From Escherichia phage ECO07P2: 64,000 nt of DNA. Position 1 is the stretch's first letter, and the number at the start of each line of letters is the position of its first letter. Positions 12 to 27,384 of the stretch are shown here, in pieces. The stretch lies in the sequence record OP172785; one strand, written 5' to 3'. Position numbers and translations under genes: made by a program. The notes beneath the pieces were generated by a model that was given only the letters and a program-made list of their open reading frames with translations, did no database searches and was not told where the DNA came from.

Positions 12-545
12 ATGAATTTAAATCTGATACTACCACTGAAGAAAGTAGTTCTTCCAATAAGCAATAAAGAAGTTTCTATTCCTAAAATGGGTCTTAAACA
101 TTATAACATTTTAAAAGATGTTAAAGGTCCTGATGAAAATTTAAAACTTCTTATTGATTCTATTTGTCCGAATTTATCACCGGCAGAAGTTGATTTCGTT
201 TCTATTCATCTATTGGAATTTAATGGAAAGATTAAATCTCGTAAAGAAATAGATGGTTATACTTATGACATTAATGATGTTTATGTATGCCAAAGATTAG
301 AATTTCAATACCAAGGAAATACATTTTATTTTAGACCGCCTGGAAAATTTGAACAATTTTTAACTGTGAGCGATATGTTATCCAAATGCTTGCTTAAGGT
401 CAATGATGAAGTTAAAGAAATTAATTTTCTTGAGATGCCAGCATTCGTTTTAAAATGGGCAAATGATATTTTTACAACTTTAGCAATTCCTGGCCCTAAT
501 GGTCCAATAACCGGAATTGGCAATATTATTGGATTATTTGAATGA
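12..545 (+). CDS. 28: baseplate hub distal subunit gp28
   Basis: 177 aa; first gene of a 28-29-48-54 order typical of T4-like baseplate hub cluster; overlaps start of next ORF. Confidence 0.75.
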   Translation: MNLNLILPLKKVVLPISNKEVSIPKMGLKHYNILKDVKGPDENLKLLIDSICPNLSPAEVDFVSIHLLEFNGKIKSRKEIDGYTYDINDVYVCQRLEFQYQGNTFYFRPPGKFEQFLTVSDMLSKCLLKVNDEVKEINFLEMPAFVLKWANDIFTTLAIPGPNGPITGIGNIIGLFE

Positions 546-2314
546 AAAAGCCACAAGAAATGCAAACGATGCGTAGAAAAGTTATTTCAGATAATAAACC
601 AACACAGGAAGCGGCTAAATCCGCTTCTAACACTTTATCTGGACTTAACGATATATCTACGAAATTGGATGATGCTCAAGCTGCGTCTGAATTAATTGCT
701 CAAACTGTCGAAGAAAAATCGAATGAAATAATTGGAGCAATTGACAACGTAGAAAGCGCAGTGAGTGATACTACTGCCGGTTCTGAGTTAATTGCTGAAA
801 CTGTCGAAATTGGCAATAATATTAATAAAGAAATCGGTGAATCGCTCGGGAGCAAATTAGATAAATTAACAAGTTTACTGGAGCAAAAAATTCAGACAGC
901 TGGAATTCAACAAACAGGAACTAGTTTAGCCACGGTTGAAAGCGCTATTCCTGTTAAAGTTGTTGAGGACGATACAGCTGAATCTGTGGGTCCTTTATTA
1001 CCAGCTCCTGAAGCAGTTAATAATGATCCTGATGCTGATTTTTTCCCTACCCCTCAGCCAGTTGAACCTAAACAAGAATCGCCAGAAGAAAAACAGAAAA
1101 AAGACGCATTTAACTTAAAATTATCTCAAGCTTTAGATAAATTAACAAAGACTGTTGATTTCGGATTTAAGAAATCTATTTCAATTACTGATAAAATATC
1201 AAGCATGCTATTTAAGTATACCGTCAGTGCTGCTATTGAAGCTGCTAAAATGACAGCAATGATATTGGCTGTTGTTGTCGGAATAGACCTGTTGATGGTT
1301 CATTTCAAATATTGGTCAGATAAATTTTCGCAGGCATGGGATTTATTTAGTACAGACTTTACTAAATTCTCTAGTGAAACAGGAACATGGGGTCCTTTAT
1401 TACAGAGCATCTTTAGTTCTATTGATGAAATTAAAAAATTCTGGGAAGAGGGAGATTGGGGCGGTTTGACGGTAGCTATTGTAGAAGGGCTTGGAAAGGT
1501 TCTTTATAATTTAGGAGAACTTATTCAGCTTGGAATGGCTAAATTATCTGCTGCAATTCTTCGAGTCATTCCTGGCATGAAGGATACCGCTGATGAAGTA
1601 GAAGGAAGAGCACTAGAAAATTTCCAAAATTCTACTGGAGCATCTCTCAATAAAGAAGACCAGGAAAAAGTTGCAAATTATCAAGATAAACGAATGAACG
1701 GAGACCTTGGTCCGATAGCAAAAGGATTAGATAAAATTGCTAATTGGAAAACTCGTGCATCTAACTGGATTCGTGGCGTTGATAATAAAGAAGCACTAAC
1801 TACCGACGAAGAGCGTGCAGCAGAAGAAGAAAAATTAAAGCAACTTTCACCAGAAGAAAGAAAAAATGCTTTAATGAAGGCTAATGAAGCTCGTGCCGCG
1901 ATGATTCGTTTTGAAAAATATGCTGATTCAGCTGATATGAGTAAAGACTCAACTGTTAAATCAGTTGAAGCTGCCTATGAAGACCTTAAAAAACGGATGG
2001 ATGACCCGGATTTAAATAATTCACCGGCAGTTAAAAAAGAACTTGCTGCTAGATTTTCTAAAATTGATGCTACTTATCAAGAGCTCAAGAAAAATCAGCC
2101 TAATGCCAAACCTGAAACTTCTGCTAAATCACCGGAAGCGAAACAGGTTCAGGTGATTGAAAAGAACAAAGCACAGCAAGCTCCTGTTCAACAAGCATCT
2201 CCTTCAATCAATAATACTAATAATGTTATTAAGAAAAATACTGTCGTTCATAATATGACACCCGTAACGAGTACGACTGCTCCTGGTGTATTTGATGCGA
2301 CTGGAGTTAATTAA
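542..2314 (+). CDS. 29: baseplate hub subunit / tail length determinator gp29
   Basis: 590 aa; length and position match T4 gp29; start overlaps gp28 stop (ATGA coupling). Confidence 0.8.
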   Translation: MKKPQEMQTMRRKVISDNKPTQEAAKSASNTLSGLNDISTKLDDAQAASELIAQTVEEKSNEIIGAIDNVESAVSDTTAGSELIAETVEIGNNINKEIGESLGSKLDKLTSLLEQKIQTAGIQQTGTSLATVESAIPVKVVEDDTAESVGPLLPAPEAVNNDPDADFFPTPQPVEPKQESPEEKQKKDAFNLKLSQALDKLTKTVDFGFKKSISITDKISSMLFKYTVSAAIEAAKMTAMILAVVVGIDLLMVHFKYWSDKFSQAWDLFSTDFTKFSSETGTWGPLLQSIFSSIDEIKKFWEEGDWGGLTVAIVEGLGKVLYNLGELIQLGMAKLSAAILRVIPGMKDTADEVEGRALENFQNSTGASLNKEDQEKVANYQDKRMNGDLGPIAKGLDKIANWKTRASNWIRGVDNKEALTTDEERAAEEEKLKQLSPEERKNALMKANEARAAMIRFEKYADSADMSKDSTVKSVEAAYEDLKKRMDDPDLNNSPAVKKELAARFSKIDATYQELKKNQPNAKPETSAKSPEAKQVQVIEKNKAQQAPVQQASPSINNTNNVIKKNTVVHNMTPVTSTTAPGVFDATGVN

Positions 2315-2322
2315 GGAATAAT

Positions 2323-3417
2323 ATGGCAATTGTTAAAGAAATAACTGCTGATTTAATTAAAAAATCCGGTGAGACAATTTCAGCCGGACAAAGCACTAAA
2401 TCAGAAGTAGGAATTAAAACATACACAGCCCAGTTTCCAACTGGGCGTGCTAGTGGTAATGACACTACAGGGGACTTCCAGGTAACAGATCTATATAAGA
2501 ATGGATTATTATTTACTGCATACAATATGTCATCTAGGGATTCTGGAAGTCTTAGATCGATGAGATCTAACTACTCTTCTTCATCTTCGAGTATTTTACG
2601 TACAGCCAGAAACACTATCAGTAATACAGTATCAAAACTGTCAAATGGATTAATATCAGATAATAATTCAGGAACAATAAGTAAAGCCCCTGTTGCAAAT
2701 ATTCTTTTACCAAGATCTAAATCCGATGTTGATACATCATCACATAGATTTAATGATGTTCAAGAAAGTCTTATCAGCAGAGGCGGAGGTACTGCTACTG
2801 GTGTGTTAAGTAATATTGCTTCAACTGCAGTATTTGGGGCACTGGAAAGTATAACACAGGGTATAATGGCTGATAATAATGAACAGATTTATACTACAGC
2901 CAGAAGTATGTATGGCGGTGCTGAGAATAGAACTAAAGTGTTTACATGGGATTTGACGCCACGTTCAACAGAAGATTTAATGGCTATTATTAATATCTAT
3001 CAATATTTTAACTATTTTTCTTATGGTGAAACGGGTAAATCTCAATATGCCGCTGAAATAAAGGGGTATTTAGATGATTGGTATCGTTCTACGTTAATTG
3101 AACCTTTATCTCCGGAAGACGCGGCTAAAAATAAAACACTATTTGAGAAAATGACATCGAGTTTAACTAACGTTCTAGTAGTTTCAAACCCGACAATTTG
3201 GATGGTGAAAAACTTTGGTGCAACATCTAAGTTTGATGGAAAAACGGAAATATTTGGCCCATGCCAAATACAGAGCATCAGATTTGATAAAACACCTAAC
3301 GGTAACTTTAACGGATTAGCTATTGCACCAAATCTCCCTAGTACATTTACTCTCGAGATTACTATGAGAGAAATTATTACGTTAAACCGTGCTTCTTTAT
3401 ATGCGGGGACTTTTTAA
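2323..3417 (+). CDS. 48: baseplate tail tube cap gp48
   Basis: 364 aa; position between 29 and 54; Ser-rich N-terminal region. Confidence 0.8.
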   Translation: MAIVKEITADLIKKSGETISAGQSTKSEVGIKTYTAQFPTGRASGNDTTGDFQVTDLYKNGLLFTAYNMSSRDSGSLRSMRSNYSSSSSSILRTARNTISNTVSKLSNGLISDNNSGTISKAPVANILLPRSKSDVDTSSHRFNDVQESLISRGGGTATGVLSNIASTAVFGALESITQGIMADNNEQIYTTARSMYGGAENRTKVFTWDLTPRSTEDLMAIINIYQYFNYFSYGETGKSQYAAEIKGYLDDWYRSTLIEPLSPEDAAKNKTLFEKMTSSLTNVLVVSNPTIWMVKNFGATSKFDGKTEIFGPCQIQSIRFDKTPNGNFNGLAIAPNLPSTFTLEITMREIITLNRASLYAGTF

Positions 3418-4382
3418 TGTATTCTTTAGAGGAATTTAATAATCAAGCAATAAACGCAGATTTTCAACGTAATAATATGTTTAGCTGCGTTTTTGCGACA
3501 ACTCCATCAACTAAAAGCTCTTCGTTGATAAGTTCAATTAGCAACTTTTCTTATAATAACTTGGGTCTAAATTCAGATTGGTTAGGATTAACCCAAGGCG
3601 ATATTAATCAGGGAATTACAACGTTAATTACTGCTGGAACACAAAAACTGACAAGAAAATCAGGAGTCAGTAAATATCTAATTGGTGCAATGAGTCAACG
3701 TACAGTTCAAAGTTTATTAGGCTCATTTACAGTTGGTACATATTTAATTGACTTCTTTAACATGGCATATAACTCATCTGGATTGATGATATACTCTGTA
3801 AAAATGCCAGAGAATAGATTATCTTATGAAACTGACTGGAACTATAATTCTCCTAATATTCGCATAACCGGGAGAGAATTAGACCCTTTGGTTATTTCAT
3901 TTAGAATGGATTCAGAGTCGTGTAATTATCGTGCAATGCAAGACTGGGTCAATGCTGTTCAAGACCCAGTAACTGGATTACGTGCTCTGCCGCAAGATGT
4001 CGAGGCGGATATCCAAGTTAATCTTCATTCTCGTAATGGATTGCCTCATACTGCGGTGATGTTCACCGGATGCATTCCAGTATCAGTGAGCGCTCCTGAG
4101 TTATCATATGATGGAGATAACCAAATAACTACATTTGATGTTACTTTTGCGTATAGAGTCATGCAGGCTGGAGCAGTTGATAGACAAGCTGCGCTTGAAT
4201 GGCTTGAATCTGCTGCTATAAATGGTATTCAAAGCTCTTCTGGAAATAATGGAGGTGTTACTGAACTATCTAGTTCGCTTTCACGACTTAGTAGATTAGG
4301 TGGAACTGCAGGAAGCATTTCAAACATTAATACTATGACAGGGATTGTCAATTCGCAGAGTAAAATATTAGGAGCAATATAA
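3417..4382 (+). CDS. 54: baseplate tail tube initiator gp54
   Basis: 321 aa; immediately follows gp48 with overlapping stop/start; followed by hairpin terminator. Confidence 0.8.
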   Translation: MYSLEEFNNQAINADFQRNNMFSCVFATTPSTKSSSLISSISNFSYNNLGLNSDWLGLTQGDINQGITTLITAGTQKLTRKSGVSKYLIGAMSQRTVQSLLGSFTVGTYLIDFFNMAYNSSGLMIYSVKMPENRLSYETDWNYNSPNIRITGRELDPLVISFRMDSESCNYRAMQDWVNAVQDPVTGLRALPQDVEADIQVNLHSRNGLPHTAVMFTGCIPVSVSAPELSYDGDNQITTFDVTFAYRVMQAGAVDRQAALEWLESAAINGIQSSSGNNGGVTELSSSLSRLSRLGGTAGSISNINTMTGIVNSQSKILGAI

Positions 4383-4386
4383 CAAT

Positions 4387-4414
4387 GGGGACCTTTCGGT
4401 CCCCATGTTTTTAT
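4387..4414 (+). terminator. rho-independent terminator after gene 54 (GGGGACC-TTTC-GGTCCCC hairpin plus T-run)
   Basis: perfect 7-bp stem with tetraloop followed by tgtttttattt. Confidence 0.6.
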
Positions 4415-4701
4415 TTACGGAATGAAATGAAAGCAGCAACTGAAGCAACTAAACTGTCTTCAATATAAACTTCAATTTTTACCGGAGCTTCTGACTCAAA
4501 TTTACCTGTTACCACACCCTGAAAAATACTTTCAGTCTGTTCTGGCTTTGAAAAATTTTCAGAAGGAAAAATTCCGAACTTTTTATCTGTTCCAAAAATT
4601 TTAATAAATTCATCGTAAACTGCTTCATTAAAAGCATTATCAACAGGAATAACGCCTTCAACTACAAGTTCTTGACCTAAAAAGCGCAAAGAAGATTTCA
4701 T
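4411..4701 (-). CDS. hypothetical protein (alt-adjacent small ORF)
   Basis: 96 aa ORF with SD-like aggaacacaaaATG; preceded by early promoter cassette at 4733-4762. Confidence 0.45.
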   Translation of the reverse strand: MKSSLRFLGQELVVEGVIPVDNAFNEAVYDEFIKIFGTDKKFGIFPSENFSKPEQTESIFQGVVTGKFESEAPVKIEVYIEDSLVASVAAFISFRK

Positions 4702-4732
4702 TTTGTGTTCCTCATGTTATGTCAGTAAGACT

Positions 4733-4762
4733 ACTATAACACAACATGAGGAACTTGTAAAC
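4733..4762 (-). promoter_or_regulatory. early-type sigma70 promoter (-35 GTTTAC, TGn-extended -10 TATAGT)
   Basis: revcomp reads GTTTAC-18nt-TGTTATAGT; flanked by 12-bp perfect inverted repeat 4707-4718/4743-4754; near-identical copy at 19622-19651. Confidence 0.55.
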
Positions 4763-22474: not shown

Positions 22475-23266
22475 TCACATATTGTGTATAAGCACTTCAG
22501 TCTGAAATGATGCACCTTTCTTTTGCTTCCTATACATGGTTTCAAAATATTCAATTTTGAAATTATTAGAAAGTGCCCAATCTTTTAAAATATAATTGTT
22601 AATATCGTCTGATAGATTATTAGTGATAATAAATTTAGACTTTGATTGTTTAATTTTGTCTAATAATTCTAATTCATCCTTTTCTTCCCAGCCTGAATAT
22701 TTAAATTTAGTAGAAAGATATGGTGGGTCAATGAATAAATTTTTGTTTTCAAAATCCAAATCTCTGAATGATTTATTACTAAATGTAAATCGGTGCTGTC
22801 TATTTTTAAATTCAGAAAATTTATCCTGTTGAGACTTGTTAAAAGAAGTTCTGGAATACTTGGCTCTATTGGCGAAAGCCGCGTTATAATTTCCATTACT
22901 AGAAAATCGGATTAACGAACTGAATGAAAATAAATGTAAAACATAAAGATATAATCCGTTTTTGGTTTTATCGTATTCTTTTGACAGATTATAAAAAGGT
23001 GCTGAATCTTTGTCATTCAAATTAAAATCTTCAATAATTTTAACTATATCATTAATTGAAGATGATTTCATCTTTTTATACATGTCTATAAGAGGAGTAT
23101 TAATATCATTACATATAACATCTCTCTGACAATTCATAGAAAATCCAAGACCACCACAAAAAGCATCCAAAACAGGCTTATCGTCAAAGCGGTTTGAAAA
23201 TTGTCTAATAAATGGCATATACTTATGTTTTGCACCTGGATATGTTATGGCAGGTAGGTCTTTCAT
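22475..23266 (-). CDS. Dam-family (D12 class, alpha-type) N6-adenine DNA methyltransferase-like protein
   Basis: 263 aa; N-terminal YPGAK and DAFCGGLG (motif I FxGxG), C-terminal DPPY catalytic motif; architecture parallels E. coli/T4 Dam. Confidence 0.7.
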   Translation of the reverse strand: MKDLPAITYPGAKHKYMPFIRQFSNRFDDKPVLDAFCGGLGFSMNCQRDVICNDINTPLIDMYKKMKSSSINDIVKIIEDFNLNDKDSAPFYNLSKEYDKTKNGLYLYVLHLFSFSSLIRFSSNGNYNAAFANRAKYSRTSFNKSQQDKFSEFKNRQHRFTFSNKSFRDLDFENKNLFIDPPYLSTKFKYSGWEEKDELELLDKIKQSKSKFIITNNLSDDINNYILKDWALSNNFKIEYFETMYRKQKKGASFQTEVLIHNM

Positions 23267-23309: not shown

Positions 23310-25574
23310 TCATAATTTACAGGATGAACAATCTTCAGCTTTTGGAGTTTCTATTTCATAATCATCAGTACCAGAACCATCGCGGGTATTATGATAATAG
23401 AAATTTTTTCCGCCAAAATACCAAAAATACAAAAGGTCATCAATCATTATTGACATTGGAACCTTTCCTTTTGGAAAAATCTGCGGGTCATAATATGTAT
23501 TCGCTGAAGCTGATTGACATACCCATTTCAGCATAATAGCTACCTGCGTAAGATAAGGTTTATTACCTTTCTTAGCTAATTTCCACGTATAATCATACAG
23601 GTCTATGTTATGCTCAATATTGGGCACGACTTGATTAAAGGAACCCTCTTTTGATTCTTTAACAGAGACTGGTCCACGTGGAGGCTCGATACCGTTTGTA
23701 CTGTTAGAAACTTGGGAAGATGACTCACATGGCATAAGTGCTGATAATGTGCTATTACGGATGCCAAAGAGCTTAAGGTCTTCCCGCAGCGCCGACCAGT
23801 CACAAACGTATTTTGGAGCTGCGATTTGGTCAATCTTTTTATTGTACCAGTCGATAGGTAATTCGCCTCGAGACCAACGAGTGTCTGAATAATATTCGCA
23901 AGGTCCTTTTTCTTTGGCGAGCTTAATGGATGCTTTAATGAGTCCATACTGTAATCTCTCAAATAGTTCATGTGTTAAATCGTTAGCATCTTCATAAGAA
24001 GCAAAGTTACTTGCCAGCCAAGCTGCATAGTTAGTAACACCTACGCCAAGGTTTCGACGCTTTTTAGCTTTTTCTGCTTCAGGAACTGGATATCCTTGGT
24101 AGTCCAAAAGATTATCAAGAGCACGAACTTGGACTTCTGCTAATTCATTAATTTTATCTTGGTCTTGCCAATCGAAGTTATCTAACACAAATGCAGATAA
24201 TGTACACAATCCAATTTCAGCATCATGACTATTCACATCATTTGTTGGAATAGCAATTTCACAGCACAAGTTGCTCTGACGAATAGGTGCCTTTTCACGA
24301 ATAAATGGCGTATAGTTATTCGTATTATCAATGAACTGCACATAAATCCTTGCTGTTCCTGAGCGTTCAGTCATGAGCAATTCAAACAGTTCACGGGCTT
24401 TAATACGCTTTTTGCGAATATTAGGGTCTTTTTCTGCGGCTTCGTATAATTCACGGAAACGGTCTTGGTCTTTAAAATAAGAATAATAAAGCTCGCCACC
24501 CATTTCGTGTGGACTGAACAAAGTAATGTAGTCGTTCTTTCCAAAACGTTCCATCATCAAATCATTCAGTTGAACGCCATAATCCATATGACGGATACGG
24601 TTTTCTTCTACGCCTTTGTTATTTTTCAAAACGAGAAGATTTTCAACTTCCAAATGCCAAATAGGATAATAAGCAGTAGCAGCGCCGCCACGAATTCCAC
24701 CCTGTGAGCATGATTTAACAGCAGTCTGAAAATGTTTCCAAAAAGGAATAACACCAGTATGGCGTACTTCACCTGTGCCAATCTTAGAACCTTCGGCACG
24801 AATCATACCAACGTTAATGCCGATTCCAGCACGTTTGGAGATATATTCAACAATTGAAGCGGAAGCCTTATTAATAGACTTTAATGAATCACCTGCCTCA
24901 ATAACAACGCATGAACTAAACTGCCGAGTCGGAGTACGGCAACCAGCCATAATAGGAGTTGGCAATGAAATCTGTCGAGTAGATACTGCTTCATAAAAAC
25001 GAATAACATGTTTTAATCTATCAATAGGTTCATCTTGATGCAATGCCATTCCAATAGTCATAAATGCAAACTGTGGAGTTTCATAAATTTGACCAGTGGT
25101 TTTATCTTTAACTAGATATTTTTCTTTTAATTGCATCGCCCCGGAATAAGTAAATTCCATATCCCGCTCATGCTTAATTTTTGATTCTAAAAATGTAATT
25201 TCTTCAGCAGAATATTTTGACAACAATTCAGGGTCATATTTACCTTCATTTACACAGTAAGAAATATGGTCAATAAATGAACGGGGTTCATACTGTCCAT
25301 AAACATGCTTACGAAGAGCGAACATTAAACATCGTGCAGCTACATATTGATAATCAGGCTCTTCAACTGAAATAGAATTCGCAGCAGCCTTAATTACAAT
25401 AGTTTGAATGTCATCAGTGGTCATTCCATCACGGAGATATGATTTAATATTTTCATATAATTCATAAGGATCTACAGATGTTCCTTCAGCTGCCCAAGAT
25501 AAAACTTTAATAATTTTTTGCGGGTCAAAGCTCTGAGAAACACCACTACTTTTGATAACATTAATTAATTGCAT
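23310..25574 (-). CDS. nrdA: ribonucleotide reductase large subunit
   Basis: 754 aa; length matches T4 NrdA; adjacent to nrdB. Confidence 0.95.
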   Translation of the reverse strand: MQLINVIKSSGVSQSFDPQKIIKVLSWAAEGTSVDPYELYENIKSYLRDGMTTDDIQTIVIKAAANSISVEEPDYQYVAARCLMFALRKHVYGQYEPRSFIDHISYCVNEGKYDPELLSKYSAEEITFLESKIKHERDMEFTYSGAMQLKEKYLVKDKTTGQIYETPQFAFMTIGMALHQDEPIDRLKHVIRFYEAVSTRQISLPTPIMAGCRTPTRQFSSCVVIEAGDSLKSINKASASIVEYISKRAGIGINVGMIRAEGSKIGTGEVRHTGVIPFWKHFQTAVKSCSQGGIRGGAATAYYPIWHLEVENLLVLKNNKGVEENRIRHMDYGVQLNDLMMERFGKNDYITLFSPHEMGGELYYSYFKDQDRFRELYEAAEKDPNIRKKRIKARELFELLMTERSGTARIYVQFIDNTNNYTPFIREKAPIRQSNLCCEIAIPTNDVNSHDAEIGLCTLSAFVLDNFDWQDQDKINELAEVQVRALDNLLDYQGYPVPEAEKAKKRRNLGVGVTNYAAWLASNFASYEDANDLTHELFERLQYGLIKASIKLAKEKGPCEYYSDTRWSRGELPIDWYNKKIDQIAAPKYVCDWSALREDLKLFGIRNSTLSALMPCESSSQVSNSTNGIEPPRGPVSVKESKEGSFNQVVPNIEHNIDLYDYTWKLAKKGNKPYLTQVAIMLKWVCQSASANTYYDPQIFPKGKVPMSIMIDDLLYFWYFGGKNFYYHNTRDGSGTDDYEIETPKAEDCSSCKL

Positions 25575-25891
25575 AAGTCCTCAACTTGAAAATCGTCTTT
25601 AAACAATCGGTTAACTATATGAGCTATTATATCACCATGACACGGCTTTGGTTTACATGTGCATCCTAGCCTCATTCCACGTAAAGGCTCTAAATGTGCT
25701 TTAGTTATTTCTCCGGATTTAATTCGACGTATAAAATCTTTTTTGAATAATTCAATGGCAGCCTCCCGGCTGCCAGCATCTTTACCGACGTAATTTCCCC
25801 AAAATGTACCACGGTGAATATTAACATCAAAGTCGGATTTATATTTATTCACTACCCGGCATAGACGGCCCACGTTGGAATAATTCGTCAT
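25565..25891 (-). CDS. DUF4326-like protein
   Basis: 108 aa; GNYVGKD...[21 protein letters not shown] resembles DUF4326 core (CHGD motif); overlaps nrdA start. Confidence 0.5.
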
Positions 25892-26120
25892 ATTGTTTTT
25901 CCGTTAAAACAGTAATATCATAGTAACAATCAGAAGAAGTTTTAACTGTAGAAATTTTATTATCAAAATACTCACGAGTCATTTTATGAGTATAATACTT
26001 TTTACCATAAATGATAATAGGTTGTTCTGGTCCTGGAACTTCTAACTCGCTTGGATTAGGAAGTGTAAAAAGAACGATACCAGAAGTATCCTTAAATCGT
26101 AAAATCATATATCCTCTCAA
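25845..26120 (-). CDS. hypothetical protein
   Basis: 91 aa ORF; 47-nt overlap with downstream ORF makes exact ends uncertain. Confidence 0.35.
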
Positions 26121-26131
26121 TTAAATTAAAA

Positions 26132-26992
26132 TTACACCGCCATCTTTCCTTTCAGGACACCGTGGGACTGATAATCTTTGAGAACGAAATCCCGTGCTGT
26201 CATATATTCCGTTAACCAATACATCTGAGTTTCAGTATCGCATTGACTGAATCCATTAGGCCAATTAATACTGAGTTTGCATAGATCCATAGGAGTTCTA
26301 TTTAATATCTCTTTGCATTGCTCAATATGGTTAGAATAAATGTGTGTATTACCACCCGAGAATACCAAATCGCCCGGAACTAGTTCACACATGTCAGCAA
26401 CAATATGTAAAAGAGCAGCATAACTCGCGATGTTAAATGGAAGACCGAGGAAAACATCTACCGAACGTTGATACCATTGGAGATCGAGGTATCCGTTACG
26501 CACATTAAACTGATAGAACATATGACAAGGTGGTAATGCCATCTGCTTGAGTTCAGCTGGATTCCATGCCGACACAATTTGACGTCTATCATTGGGAAAT
26601 GTTTTAATACGATTAACAACTTCTACAATTTGGTCTACACCACCAAAATCGCGCCATTGTTTTCCGTAAATTGGACCAAGTTCACCGCTATGATAACCTA
26701 AGTCTTTAGCCTGGTTTTCGTAGTTTTCATCCCAAATTGTTTTTCCTGCAATTAAAGATCCATGAGTACGTTGACGTAAATCATTTACGTTAGTACTTCC
26801 TGATAAGAACCACAATAACTCAGAAATACATGCATTCCAGGCGAGCTTCTTAGTTGTTACTGCAGGAAAACCTTTAGTTAAATCCCAGCGTAATTTAGTA
26901 CCGAACAAAGCAATTGTTCCTGTGCCCGTTCGGTCATCGGTTTCATAACCGTTTTCAAAAATGTCTTTAATTAAATCTTGGTATTGTTTCAT
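26132..26992 (-). CDS. td: thymidylate synthase
   Basis: 286 aa continuous ORF (no intron). Confidence 0.95.
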   Translation of the reverse strand: MKQYQDLIKDIFENGYETDDRTGTGTIALFGTKLRWDLTKGFPAVTTKKLAWNACISELLWFLSGSTNVNDLRQRTHGSLIAGKTIWDENYENQAKDLGYHSGELGPIYGKQWRDFGGVDQIVEVVNRIKTFPNDRRQIVSAWNPAELKQMALPPCHMFYQFNVRNGYLDLQWYQRSVDVFLGLPFNIASYAALLHIVADMCELVPGDLVFSGGNTHIYSNHIEQCKEILNRTPMDLCKLSINWPNGFSQCDTETQMYWLTEYMTARDFVLKDYQSHGVLKGKMAV

Positions 26993-27036: not shown

Positions 27037-27384
27037 TCAATACGGTTTAGCATCAAATTTTATTTCAATTTCAGGCGTAAAATACAATTCTTTACCACGC
27101 TTGGAAAAGCGACCAATAATATGATAATTATTCTCATCAAACGTGATATTGCCGATATCCATAGCTTTCAACCAAATATCGATATTTCTGTCAAGCTTTA
27201 TATCAAAATTCCAATATGGAGAACTATTACCAAAAATACTACAAGCGGATTCAGTGAAACAACTGCTATAAATCTTGTCTTTAGGAACTACTAATTGATA
27301 GACACCTTTAATAAACTGAGGACCTTGCCATTTTGGTTGTTTCGCGTCTTTTTCTAATAGAATAGGGTAATAATTAAAATTCAT
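27037..27384 (-). CDS. hypothetical protein (between frd and td)
   Basis: 115 aa ORF. Confidence 0.45.
   Translation of the reverse strand: MNFNYYPILLEKDAKQPKWQGPQFIKGVYQLVVPKDKIYSSCFTESACSIFGNSSPYWNFDIKLDRNIDIWLKAMDIGNITFDENNYHIIGRFSKRGKELYFTPEIEIKFDAKPY

Follow-up and report, generated by a model that had tools for sequence, protein, structure and literature searches.

Between td and nrdA, Escherichia phage ECO07P2 carries the early T4 genes nrdA.2 (87 aa) and nrdA.1 (108 aa), which belong to the td-nrdA.2-nrdA.1-nrdA transcription unit. The window, that is, the whole stretch of 64,000 nucleotides that was analysed (sequence record OP172785), is T4-type phage DNA (Tequatrovirus). Its gene order matches that of T4 at td-nrdA.2-nrdA.1-nrdA, with all four genes on the minus strand. 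The spacing from the td stop to the nrdA start was measured as 557 bp, in agreement with the original prediction of about 560 bp carrying two ORFs. The features of the interval are as follows.

26132-26992, minus strand: td (ORF list)
26112-26118, minus strand: nrdA.2 Shine-Dalgarno sequence GAGAGGA, 23 nt 3' of the td stop (read from the sequence)
25845-26108, minus strand: probable nrdA.2 coding sequence, DUF5496, 87 aa from ATG 26108 (Pfam PF17600, T4 annotation)
25845-25891, minus strand: 47 nt shared, in different frames, by the end of nrdA.2 (3') and the beginning of nrdA.1 (5') (ORF coordinates)
25565-25891, minus strand: nrdA.1 coding sequence, stand-alone DUF4326 domain, 108 aa (ORF, Pfam PF14216, PHROG 464)
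25790-25825, minus strand: codons of the N-terminal conserved motif D22-V-N-I-H-R27-G-T-F-W-G32-N33-Y34 (conservation over 154 domains)
25775-25756, minus strand: GC-rich hairpin, a T4 nrdA feature inside the nrdA.1 ORF (T4 record J03968)
25755-25750, minus strand: T4 nrdA -35 element TTGAAT inside the nrdA.1 ORF (J03968)
25733-25728, minus strand: T4 nrdA -10 element TATACG inside the nrdA.1 ORF (J03968)
25631-25663, minus strand: codons of the invariant loop C77-T-C79-K-P81-K-P-C84-H85-G86-D87 (conservation over 154 domains)
25565-25582, minus strand: nrdA.1/nrdA junction, with the nrdA Shine-Dalgarno sequence GAGG at 25582-25579 and ATG at 25574-25572 (sequence and J03968 ribosome-binding site)
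23310-25574, minus strand: nrdA (ORF list)

Identity of the two genes

The 108-aa ORF with a DUF4326-like signature lies exactly at 25565-25891 and contains WGNYVGK. Its product matched Pfam DUF4326 (PF14216) with E=5.5e-22 (78.7 bits, cut-off 25), residues 11-90 corresponding to model positions 1-81 of 82, and PHROG 464 with E=1.2e-48. NrdA.1 shares 107 of its 108 residues (99.1%) with T4 NrdA.1 (T4p235, NP_049846, UniProt P32279), which is equal in length, position and overlaps with nrdA.2 and nrdA; the sole substitution, Asn6 for Ser6, is in the non-conserved N-terminus.

The 91-aa ORF described earlier does exist at 25845-26120, but the likely gene is shorter. The 91-aa form begins at TTG 26120, inside the Shine-Dalgarno sequence GAGAGGA (26118-26112) of ATG 26108; positions 1-87 of the DUF5496 model align to its residues 5-91; and T4 nrdA.2 is annotated as the ATG form (264 nt, 87 aa). 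On these grounds, translation most likely begins at ATG 26108, so that nrdA.2 spans 25845-26108 and has 87 aa rather than 91. NrdA.2 matched the full Pfam DUF5496 model (PF17600, positions 1-87 of 87) with E=3.9e-62 (206.8 bits, cut-off 27). T4 NrdA.2 (T4p236, NP_049847, UniProt P32280; DUF5496) also has 87 aa and lies in the same place right after td; apart from two substitutions in the window copy, there is no difference of substance. Read in one frame, the 47-nt overlap between the genes gives the C-terminal tail of NrdA.2, which is modelled with low confidence (pLDDT 47); in the other frame it gives the non-conserved N-terminus of NrdA.1.

No match to a nuclease family (HNH, GIY-YIG, LAGLIDADG) was found in Pfam or PHROG for either product. 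A homing-endonuclease-like mobile cassette, comparable to mobE, segG and I-TevI nearby, was rejected because of this absent nuclease motif and vertical inheritance. The genuinely variable slot near td-nrdA is nrdA-nrdB, which carries a rare Dam-like methylase in the window versus mobE and nrdB.1 in T4.

Selection, expression and regulatory signals

When 8 Tequatrovirus copies of nrdA.1 were compared pair by pair outside the overlap, the differences added up to 55 synonymous ones and no non-synonymous one, and all amino-acid changes among these NrdA.1 copies fell within the 47-nt overlap. For nrdA.2, pN/pS was 0.09 in 8 Tequatrovirus copies. Such strong purifying selection shows that these are not chance ORFs. 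In T4 infection data (proteomics and transcriptomics), both proteins were detected; NrdA.1 falls into the class with early RNA and late protein, like NrdA, NrdB and RnlA, and NrdA.2 into that with early RNA and middle protein, like Td. Both genes scored 'Not Fit' in a T4 knock-down screen. Taken together, nrdA.1 and nrdA.2 are expressed, under purifying selection and dispensable for growth on the laboratory host.

The T4 record J03968, as annotated in 1988, has a promoter, two stem-loops and a ribosome-binding site in this region and no CDS, and these elements are identical in the window. Over the hairpin/-35/-10 stretch (25728-25775) the window sequence is the same as in T4, with a predicted hairpin free energy of -15.9 kcal/mol. 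The nrdA.1 frame could on this basis be read as a fortuitous ORF in the upstream regulatory region of nrdA. The chance of this is close to nil, given the exclusively synonymous differences, the wide occurrence of homologues (1960 phage records and 10,413 representative proteins), the confident fold prediction and the detection of the protein in T4-infected cells. The notion of a mere regulatory region is therefore refuted; the annotated signals lie within a genuine gene. A generic promoter scan missed the annotated -35/-10 pair and found no excess of promoter-like sites, and a search for terminators between the genes of the interval found none.

Distribution and genomic context

The original prediction regarded the interval as inserted accessory cargo. 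For the DUF4326 gene this does not hold: it is T4's own nrdA.1, has homologues throughout the phage records counted above, and lies directly upstream of and overlaps nrdA in 32 of 39 T4-like contigs, over which NrdA identity falls from 99% to 28%. These findings make it an old resident of the frd-td-nrd-denA-rnlA module, and the junction comparison speaks against recent cargo. Identity to T4 NrdA.1 drops broadly in parallel with NrdA identity in these contigs, and the overlap is retained even where frd and td are missing. In the window the nrdA Shine-Dalgarno sequence and ATG sit within the final codons of nrdA.1, with an overlap of 10 nt (25565-25574) that implies translational coupling; across the T4-like loci that keep it, the overlap is 8-23 nt. 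About 490 phage records carry nrdA.1 at 90% identity or more.

The cargo description is partly apt for nrdA.2, which is found only in E. coli-type T-even phages (Tevenvirinae), varies in copy number and is dispensable in the laboratory. About 500 phage records carry it at 80% identity or more, and distant homologues (23-37% identity) occur in Mosigvirus and in Gaprivervirus, where two copies flank the DUF4326 gene. The AlphaFold2 model of this small, lineage-restricted protein is a beta-sheet of five strands with a C-terminal helix (pLDDT 78.5), for which no related fold could be recognised. By likeness to other small T4 early proteins, NrdA.2 may bind a host or phage protein.

The contexts of DUF4326 are heterogeneous, including ribonucleotide reductase, RNA repair, replication and tRNA regions. 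Slopekvirus has the order nrdB-DUF4326-denA-rnlA-...-pseT, Aeromonas phages have td-DUF4326-denA-rnlA with no adjacent reductase gene, and T4-like phages of ~230 kb place DUF4326 between td and rnlA. Rnl1 and Pnkp homologues were located 1-2 kb from DUF4326 in a clade of ~100-kb phages (7 contigs), RlaP, an RNA-repair nucleotidyltransferase, 1-3 genes downstream in two jumbo phage groups, and a CCA-adding-type enzyme nearby in L148/L160. In T5-like phages the gene lies in tRNA gene regions; these phages, Ackermannviridae and phi92-like phages all have it away from the T4-type position. In the unrelated lineage of 121Q/PBECO4-type jumbo phages, DUF4326 is located between the class III gene nrdD and the activase gene nrdG. 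Other neighbours include td, dUTPase and an IMPDH-like gene, and at one locus DUF4326 adjoins NadV, a nicotinamide phosphoribosyltransferase. No class I reductase gene was present within 4 kb in about 40 non-T4-like DUF4326 loci.

Fusions were also found among 150 DUF4326 representatives, with mSLOG (7), YAcAr-SLOG (6), NADAR (4, and 1 of the DarT1-type NADAR), Macro (1) and TIR (1). Further fusions involve DNA polymerase A, RNase H and T7-type RNA polymerase, and tandem arrays contain two to three DUF4326 copies per protein. One locus is composed of DUF488, a DUF4326-TIR-APAZ fusion and a short pAgo, in that order. PADLOC and NCBIfam gave no match for NrdA.1 or NrdA.2, a defence locus being seen only for fused relatives. 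PHROG 24867 and some phi92-like genomes label small DUF4326 proteins 'Ribonucleotide reductase NrdA-like'. This label was rejected, with no reductase annotated in the 4-kb flanks shown; the name nrdA.1 seems to have been misread and the error passed on between annotations.

Conserved residues and fold of NrdA.1

The Cys/His motif is kept in homologues as had been anticipated: among 154 DUF4326 domains, C77 and C84 are present in 154, H85 in 153 and C79 in 152, and P81 is conserved at 99%. In the N-terminal motif, conservation is 93% for D22, 95% for R27, 94% for G32 and 99% for N33. The window protein has all the family-invariant residues (N15, D22, R27, G32-N33 and C77-x-C79-x-P81-x-x-C84-H85-G86-D87; 91-100% over the 154 domains). 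Position 34, in the WGNP motif, is Tyr in T4-type proteins versus Pro in 89% of the family.

A confident AlphaFold2 model was obtained (mean pLDDT 90.3), with a strand at 74-77, a loop, a helix at 85-96 and three short strands. Foldseek found nothing with E <2.5 for this model in the PDB. PDB sequence searches with NrdA.1, NrdA.2 and a 150-member profile also returned nothing meaningful. The C77-D87 loop, which in the model connects the strand to the helix, is predicted to be the active site or to bind phosphate.

NrdA.1 is a small alpha/beta DUF4326 domain which, on weaker evidence, probably belongs with RapZ-C and DUF488 in the rhodanese-phosphatase superfamily. A RapZ-C-DUF488-DUF4326 clade was reportedly defined by Burroughs and Aravind in 2023. 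The DUF4326 profile aligned with an active DUF488 protein at 18.3 bits and an hhalign probability of 61%, LLCSEAKPHRCHRRVLAEYL being matched to LGCxCKPxxCHGDVLAE, and 7 of 150 DUF4326 members gave weak Pfam DUF488-N3a matches. The NrdA.1 loop aligned to the DUF488 motif LLCSEAKPHRCHRR and resembles AIGCTGGKHRS of RapZ. DUF488 (PF04343, DUF488-N3a/N3i) is like DUF4326 in its C-terminal half, which aligns over L-x-C, K-P and C-H and then the helix VLAEYL; it differs in being longer (~115-165 aa), in having Arg after His and in lacking the second cysteine (C79), and it too is uncharacterised. In E. coli YeaO the motif cysteines are all missing.

The C-terminal domain of the E. coli RNase adaptor protein RapZ (PDB 5o5q), which we take to be the closest solved relative of DUF4326, has the loop C-T-G-G-K-H-R-S. 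The NrdA.1 loop exceeds this by two residues, contains two additional cysteines and has Gly-Asp instead of Arg-Ser, and the likeness is insufficient for a confident assignment from structure alone. When the DUF4326 profile was compared by hhalign with single RapZ-C or YeaO sequences, the scores were not significant, with local alignments on the expected motifs; the RapZ side consisted of single sequences, as none of the 80 RapZ loci recovered fell below 95% identity. RapZ-C, whose ligands are a small RNA and a sugar phosphate, is a binding domain with no known catalysis.

A canonical cysteine phosphatase was rejected because the C-X5-R-(S/T) signature is absent from the loop, which contains no Arg: the residue six past C77 is Pro83, at a position taken by Ala or Pro across the family, and that six past C79 is His85. 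PTEN, dual-specificity phosphatases, Cdc25 and rhodanese differ from NrdA.1 in this C-X5-R motif and in their much larger sheet, and NrdA.1 is no member of them by sequence. A truncated NADAR was rejected as well, since NrdA.1 had no profile match to NADAR (PF08719).

Proposed function of NrdA.1

In keeping with the original prediction that DUF4326 has no established function, our literature search found no measured activity of any DUF4326 protein, only predictions. Based on the invariant C-x-C-x-P-x-x-C-H-G-D loop, the DUF488 profile match and the SLOG, NADAR, Macro and TIR fusions, we infer, with a probability of roughly 0.45, that NrdA.1 is a minimal RapZ-C/DUF488/DUF4326 member whose target is a phosphate attached to ribose, in a substrate that derives from NAD+/ADP-ribose or is a nucleotide or RNA end. 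Macro ADP-ribose-1''-phosphate phosphatases and NADAR ADP-ribose glycohydrolases, which are fused to some DUF4326 proteins, process ADP-ribose derivatives, the role proposed here. Published predictions for DUF4326 agree with an NAD+/ADP-ribose link (PMC9503650, PMC7824862), the domain being predicted to process the phosphates of molecules derived from NAD+/ADP-ribose.

An anion (phosphate) pocket would lie between Cys77 at the end of its strand, the loop C79-K-P-K-P-C84-H85 and the first turn of the next helix, and D22, R27, N33 and R42 of the N-terminal half may complete it. NrdA.1 would bind a phosphorylated ribose there and remove or transfer the phosphate via a cysteine thiol. ADP-ribose-derived metabolites or breakdown products would be the most likely substrates, a nucleotide or RNA end being less likely. 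During infection, NrdA.1 might clear or disarm NAD+-derived products made by ADP-ribosyltransferases of the phage itself or by NADase-based immunity of the host, which would fit a gene that is conserved yet conditionally dispensable. Several observations point away from the proposed function, namely that T4 nrdA.1 has no NAD-related neighbour, the Tyr in place of Pro in the WGNP motif, the heterogeneous neighbourhoods, the missing C-X5-R and the non-significant single-sequence comparisons with RapZ and YeaO.

NrdA.1 might instead process nucleic-acid ends: where RNA (tRNA) or DNA is broken, it would remove or transfer a phosphate (2'-, 3'- or cyclic), working beside the phage polynucleotide kinase/phosphatase and RNA ligase. 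Rnl1, Pnkp, rnlA, pseT, RlaP, the CCA-adding-type enzyme and tRNA regions near DUF4326 genes are consistent with such a role, as are the fusions to DNA polymerase A, RNase H and T7-type RNA polymerase and the RNA binding of RapZ-C. However, shared gene order explains the rnlA/pseT proximity in T4-like phages, only one clearly independent lineage shows proximity to RNA repair, and in T4 the ends with a 3'-phosphate or cyclic phosphate are already dealt with by Pnkp. As the commonest fusions (SLOG, NADAR, Macro, TIR) also favour small NAD-derived ligands over polymers, we consider end processing unlikely. A non-catalytic protein is harder to credit: the C-x-C...C-H cluster would be a structural zinc (or iron) site, and NrdA.1 a binder of a nucleotide-derived ligand, nucleic acid or protein, serving as a sensor, sponge or inhibitor. 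The cysteines, three in number, and the histidine are conserved at 99% or more within nine residues, which would suit a metal site equally well as a phosphatase, and this reading is in line with the RapZ-C precedent, the tandem arrays and the TIR-APAZ fusion, in which DUF4326 stands where sensor or regulatory domains typically sit. Yet N15, D22, R27, N33, R42 and D87, outside the cluster of cysteines, are also nearly invariant polar residues, as expected of a catalytic or ligand pocket, and the neighbouring Cys84 and His85 are unlikely ligands of one metal ion.

A link to ribonucleotide reduction was also weighed. NrdA.1 could be an accessory to the reductase or to dNTP supply, acting as a cysteine redox or metal partner or, through nucleotide phosphatase activity, tuning the substrates or effectors of the reductase, at a ratio to NrdA fixed by translational coupling. 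This would account for the overlap with the nrdA start, persisting to 28% NrdA identity and without frd and td, for the protein-kinetics class shared with NrdA and NrdB in T4, and for the nrdD-DUF4326-nrdG order in 121Q/PBECO4-type phages; the td, dUTPase and IMPDH-like neighbours and the suitability of three invariant cysteines for redox or metal chemistry point the same way. Against it stand the lack of class I reductase genes around the non-T4-like loci, the other positions in Ackermannviridae, phi92-like and T5-like phages, the td-DUF4326-denA order of Aeromonas phages, and fusion partners unrelated to the reductase. Moreover, one extra adjacency among about 12 sampled lineages would arise by chance in ~20% of cases (a rough estimate), and class Ia and class III ribonucleotide reductases are not known to have any accessory factor in common. 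Such an accessory is improbable, in our judgement. Slightly less doubtful, though still unlikely, is that DUF4326 is an enzyme tied to ribonucleotide reduction in general, removing a ribose-phosphate or nucleotide by-product or guarding dNTP supply against NAD+- or nucleotide-depleting host immunity. Behind this idea lie the coupling to class Ia nrdA in T4-like phages and the class III nrdD-nrdG placement in 121Q/PBECO4-type phages. If true, it would add a new, unrecognised component to the dNTP-synthesising machinery of T4.

Implications

As nrdA.1 and nrdA.2 are already catalogued and annotated T4 genes, ordinary for a T4-type genome, finding them here adds little. The family of NrdA.1 is nevertheless very large (10,413 representative proteins, 1960 phage genomes), with no biochemically characterised member found in the literature. 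T4 is an ideal genetic and biochemical system for testing the predicted NAD+/ADP-ribose phosphate processing, and the conserved coupling to reductase genes and the DUF488/DUF4326/TIR/pAgo locus are starting points. Once established, the function of DUF4326 would provide an annotation for thousands of genes in phages, plasmids and giant viruses.

Identity and coordinates of the genes between td and nrdA

The window comes from a T4-type phage. A nucleotide search with 25200-26500 matched 532 phage records, nearly all of them Escherichia/Shigella/Yersinia T-even phages, with a top identity of 99.0%. On the minus strand, frd is followed by a 115-aa ORF, td, a small ORF, a 108-aa ORF and nrdA. In the T4 reference genome, td-nrdA.2-nrdA.1-nrdA is arranged as in the window, and the 327-nt and 264-nt genes match in size. 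The features are as follows:

26132-26992, minus strand, td, without intron; 286 aa, single ORF
25845-26108, minus strand, nrdA.2, 87 aa from ATG, as in the T4 annotation; DUF5496
25565-25891, minus strand, nrdA.1, 108 aa; DUF4326
23310-25574, minus strand, nrdA, ORF

The two ORFs of the original prediction were present, with corrections. Since the Pfam DUF5496 alignment of the small ORF (E=3.9e-62) begins at residue 5 of the predicted 91-aa form, and TTG 26120, the start of that form, falls within the Shine-Dalgarno sequence GAGAGGA of ATG 26108, nrdA.2 was assigned to 25845-26108 with 87 aa. It shares 47 nt with nrdA.1, which in turn shares 10 nt with nrdA. The 108-aa protein, described from sequence as DUF4326-like, matched Pfam DUF4326 in a profile search (E=5.5e-22) as well as PHROG 464, and has a single residue change relative to T4 NrdA.1. 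The finding is real, and the pair are the already known T4 genes nrdA.1 and nrdA.2.

Both genes are real and expressed

Both nrdA.1 and nrdA.2 are real genes. Among eight Tequatrovirus copies, nrdA.1 showed 55 synonymous and 0 non-synonymous differences outside the overlap (pairwise sum), and nrdA.2 had a pN/pS of 0.09. Amino-acid variation of NrdA.1 in these copies was confined to the first 12 residues, whose codons fall in the stretch shared with the sequence for the disordered NrdA.2 tail. In a time-resolved study of T4, both proteins were detected, NrdA.1 being classed as 'early RNA, late protein', like NrdA, NrdB and RnlA, and NrdA.2 as 'early RNA, middle protein', like Td (PMC9697503 supplement). 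In a T4 dCas13d knock-down screen, nrdA.1 and nrdA.2 were 'Not Fit' (-0.12 and -0.35), as were nrdA, nrdB, td and frd (PMC11879866 supplement). The two genes are dispensable on the laboratory host.

In the 1988 T4 record J03968, the sequence of nrdA.1 was annotated as lying upstream of nrdA and carrying a hairpin, -35 and -10 boxes and a ribosome-binding site. The sequence of these promoter-region elements is unchanged in the window, and all lie within the nrdA.1 coding sequence:

25728-25775 and 25836-25849, minus strand, J03968 elements including the hairpin, -35, -10 and a late-promoter-like site

The hairpin (TGGCAGCC-GGGA-GGCTGCCA, -15.9 kcal/mol) codes for the conserved A-G-S-R42-E-A-A segment. 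The annotated -35 TTGAAT and -10 TATACG, and also the late-promoter-like TATAAATA, are likewise coding.

Distribution and junction variants

DUF4326 relatives of nrdA.1 occurred in 1960 phage records and, at a threshold of E<=0.001, numbered 10,413 among representative proteins. We fetched 80 viral contigs with the DUF4326 family profile, of which 39 were T4-like with both a DUF4326 gene and nrdA. The DUF4326 ORF overlapped the extrapolated nrdA start by 8-23 nt in 32 of these 39, across NrdA identities to T4 from 99% down to 28%. A distant T4-like contig without frd and td at the site keeps the overlap (gp32, 128-aa ORF, DUF4326, nrdA). Homologues of nrdA.2 were restricted to E. coli-type T-even phages; identities were 86-99% within Tequatrovirus and 23-37% for the Mosigvirus and Gaprivervirus copies. 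Other gene orders were:

Gaprivervirus: td, nrdA.2-like, DUF4326, nrdA.2-like, nrdA
Acinetobacter Lazarusvirus: td, 70-aa ORF, DUF4326, nrdA
Aeromonas Biquartavirus: td, DUF4326, denA, rnlA
Klebsiella PTP25-type (Slopekvirus-like) phages: td, nrdA, nrdB, DUF4326, denA, rnlA
Mosigvirus AV115: td, nrdA.2-like, homing endonuclease, nrdA; DUF4326 gene absent at the td-nrdA junction (junction only)

The pair had been read as accessory cargo. This is wrong for nrdA.1, because it is widespread at nrdA, and partly right for nrdA.2, because its distribution is narrow.

In Gaprivervirus Escherichia phage vB_EcoM_RZ, two diverged nrdA.2-like paralogues (L007, its fetched locus, 3245-3442 and 3863-4108; 65 and 81 aa; 23% and 35% identity to NrdA.2 of the window) flank the DUF4326 gene, which suggests that nrdA.2 was duplicated within this junction. 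In five T-even contigs of ~170 kb (L118-L122), identity to T4 drops from 86-88% for NrdA to 65-69% for the adjoining NrdA.1, and the two genes are separated by 57 nt instead of overlapping, suggesting a recombination boundary or quicker evolution here. A distant T4-like contig (L181 4332-8003; L132 4320-7991) encodes an NrdA of 1223 aa, versus 754 aa in T4, with the T4 similarity broken into three blocks; it may carry inteins or other insertions.

Other differences from T4 lie nearby. In place of T4 mobE and nrdB.1, the nrdA-nrdB interval of the window carries a 263-aa ORF like a Dam-type (D12 class) DNA adenine methyltransferase (22475-23266, minus strand; PF02086 E=5.5e-24; TIGR00571 94 bits, under the cut-off of 115). 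Coverage of this stretch reached >=80% in only 7 of the 590 phage records that matched, so here is where truly variable cargo sits close to nrdA.1 and nrdA.2. The td gene of the window (26132-26992) has no intron, in contrast to the I-TevI intron of T4 td. The 115-aa ORF between td and frd (27037-27384, minus strand), without a Pfam or NCBIfam match, was found in phage KFS-EC3 and is missing in T4, where frd abuts td.

Conservation and predicted fold of NrdA.1

The confident AlphaFold2 model of NrdA.1 (32 homologues; pLDDT 90.3, pTM 0.83) comprises a strand (12-15), a short hairpin (23-28) and helices 42-59 and 64-70, after which strand 74-77 leads through a loop into helix 85-96, and a short helix ends the chain. 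Foldseek returned no PDB match with E below 2.5 for the model, and no close solved structure was found. Over 154 DUF4326 domains from 150 diverse representatives, N15, D22, R27, G32-N33, R42 and the block L75-G76-C77-x-C79-x-P81-x-x-C84-H85-G86-D87 were near-invariant. The Cys/His motif, whose loss in homologues had been named beforehand as evidence against the original prediction, was thus kept. Conservation of Cys11 is limited to T4-likes, and position 34 is Tyr in T4-type proteins versus Pro in 89% of the family.

Compared by eye, RapZ-C carries DVRFLPNPHW and AIGCTGGKHRSVYIAEQL, beside IGRGSKWGNPF and LGCFCKPKACHGDVLAE in the DUF4326 consensus. The DUF4326 profile gave nothing significant against a single RapZ or YeaO sequence. 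It did score 18.3 bits (hhalign probability 61%) against an active DUF488 protein encoded on a metagenomic contig, with LLCSEAKPHRCHRRVLAEYL aligned to the Cys/His block, and 7 of 150 family members had weak Pfam DUF488-N3a matches. Burroughs and Aravind reportedly defined, in 2023, a RapZ-C-DUF488-DUF4326 clade within the rhodanese-phosphatase superfamily, with which the DUF488 match would agree. A canonical C-X5-R phosphatase was considered and rejected; its signature is absent from NrdA.1.

Fusions, neighbours and the ribonucleotide reductase link

DUF4326 was treated in two earlier papers from one group, one of which predicted it as a bridge between NAD+-utilising signalling and DNA modification (PMC7824862). 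Our survey of fusions and neighbours supports the NAD+/ADP-ribose link. Stand-alone proteins (130 aa or less) made up 86 of 149 representatives, and 37 of 149 exceeded 200 aa. Among 150 scanned members, fusions involved mSLOG (7), YAcAr-SLOG (6), DprA-like SLOG (5), NADAR (4, plus 1 DarT1-type), Macro (1) and TIR (1), with single fusions to DNA polymerase A, RNase H, T7-type RNA polymerase and HD. The TIR-fused protein is the TIR-APAZ partner of a short prokaryotic Argonaute in a defence locus:

L178 (metagenomic locus, Logan SRR30813764), 248-4268: DUF488, 163 aa; DUF4326-TIR-APAZ, 681 aa; class I short pAgo, 506 aa

This SPARTA-type NADase system therefore has two members of the RapZ-C/DUF488/DUF4326 group joined to it. 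One phage clade has the DUF4326 gene two genes from NadV, near a CCA-adding-type enzyme.

Neighbourhoods outside the NAD context are mixed. They include Rnl1 and Pnkp in a ~100-kb phage clade, RlaP in jumbo phages, gp46/47 nuclease genes in Ackermannviridae and tRNA gene regions in T5-like phages. Further neighbours were dUTPase, an IMPDH-like gene, DNA ligase, PhoH with a Clp protease-like gene, DNA polymerase A, 5'-3' exonuclease and primase.

A role linked to ribonucleotide reductase is kept alive by the conserved nrdA overlap in T4-likes and by 121Q/PBECO4-type (Asteriusvirus-type) jumbo phages, in which nrdD (class III reductase) and nrdG (activase) are separated by a 110-aa DUF4326 gene that overlaps nrdG (L154, a fetched locus, 2106-4757; 121Q, PBECO4, SP27 and relatives), and is 100% conserved in >20 records. 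DUF4326 genes adjoin reductase genes in these two independent cases, with a different reductase class in each. However, ~40 other non-T4-like loci yielded no class I reductase gene within 4 kb, and one extra adjacency among ~12 sampled lineages could, by rough estimate, be expected by chance in ~1 of 5 cases.

In phi92-like phages, small DUF4326 proteins (PHROG 24867; Salmonella phage UAB_1, L005 3881-4267) carry the label 'ribonucleoside-diphosphate reductase 1 alpha subunit' or 'NrdA-like'. Their 4-kb flanks held no annotated reductase gene, and the label looks like a spread misreading of the gene name nrdA.1.

Proposed function

NrdA.1 is a conserved, expressed DUF4326 protein with an invariant loop. 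It is most likely a minimal enzyme, and every mechanistic step past that conserved, expressed protein is one that we infer. A pocket for a ribose-linked phosphate would be built from Cys77, the loop running from C79 to H85 and the N-terminus of the helix, with D22, R27, N33 and R42 completing it; the phosphate would be hydrolysed or transferred through a thiol. The most probable substrates would be ADP-ribose-derived molecules, with RNA or DNA ends, or nucleotides, as alternatives. Alternatively, a metal could be bound by the histidine together with the three invariant cysteines. The NrdA.2 model, of moderate confidence (pLDDT 78.5), has five strands and a helix, and a structural search with it gave no informative neighbour. 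NrdA.1 is of interest solely because it gives the best-studied phage one member of a very large, enzyme-like and uncharacterised family, which makes the published prediction directly testable there.
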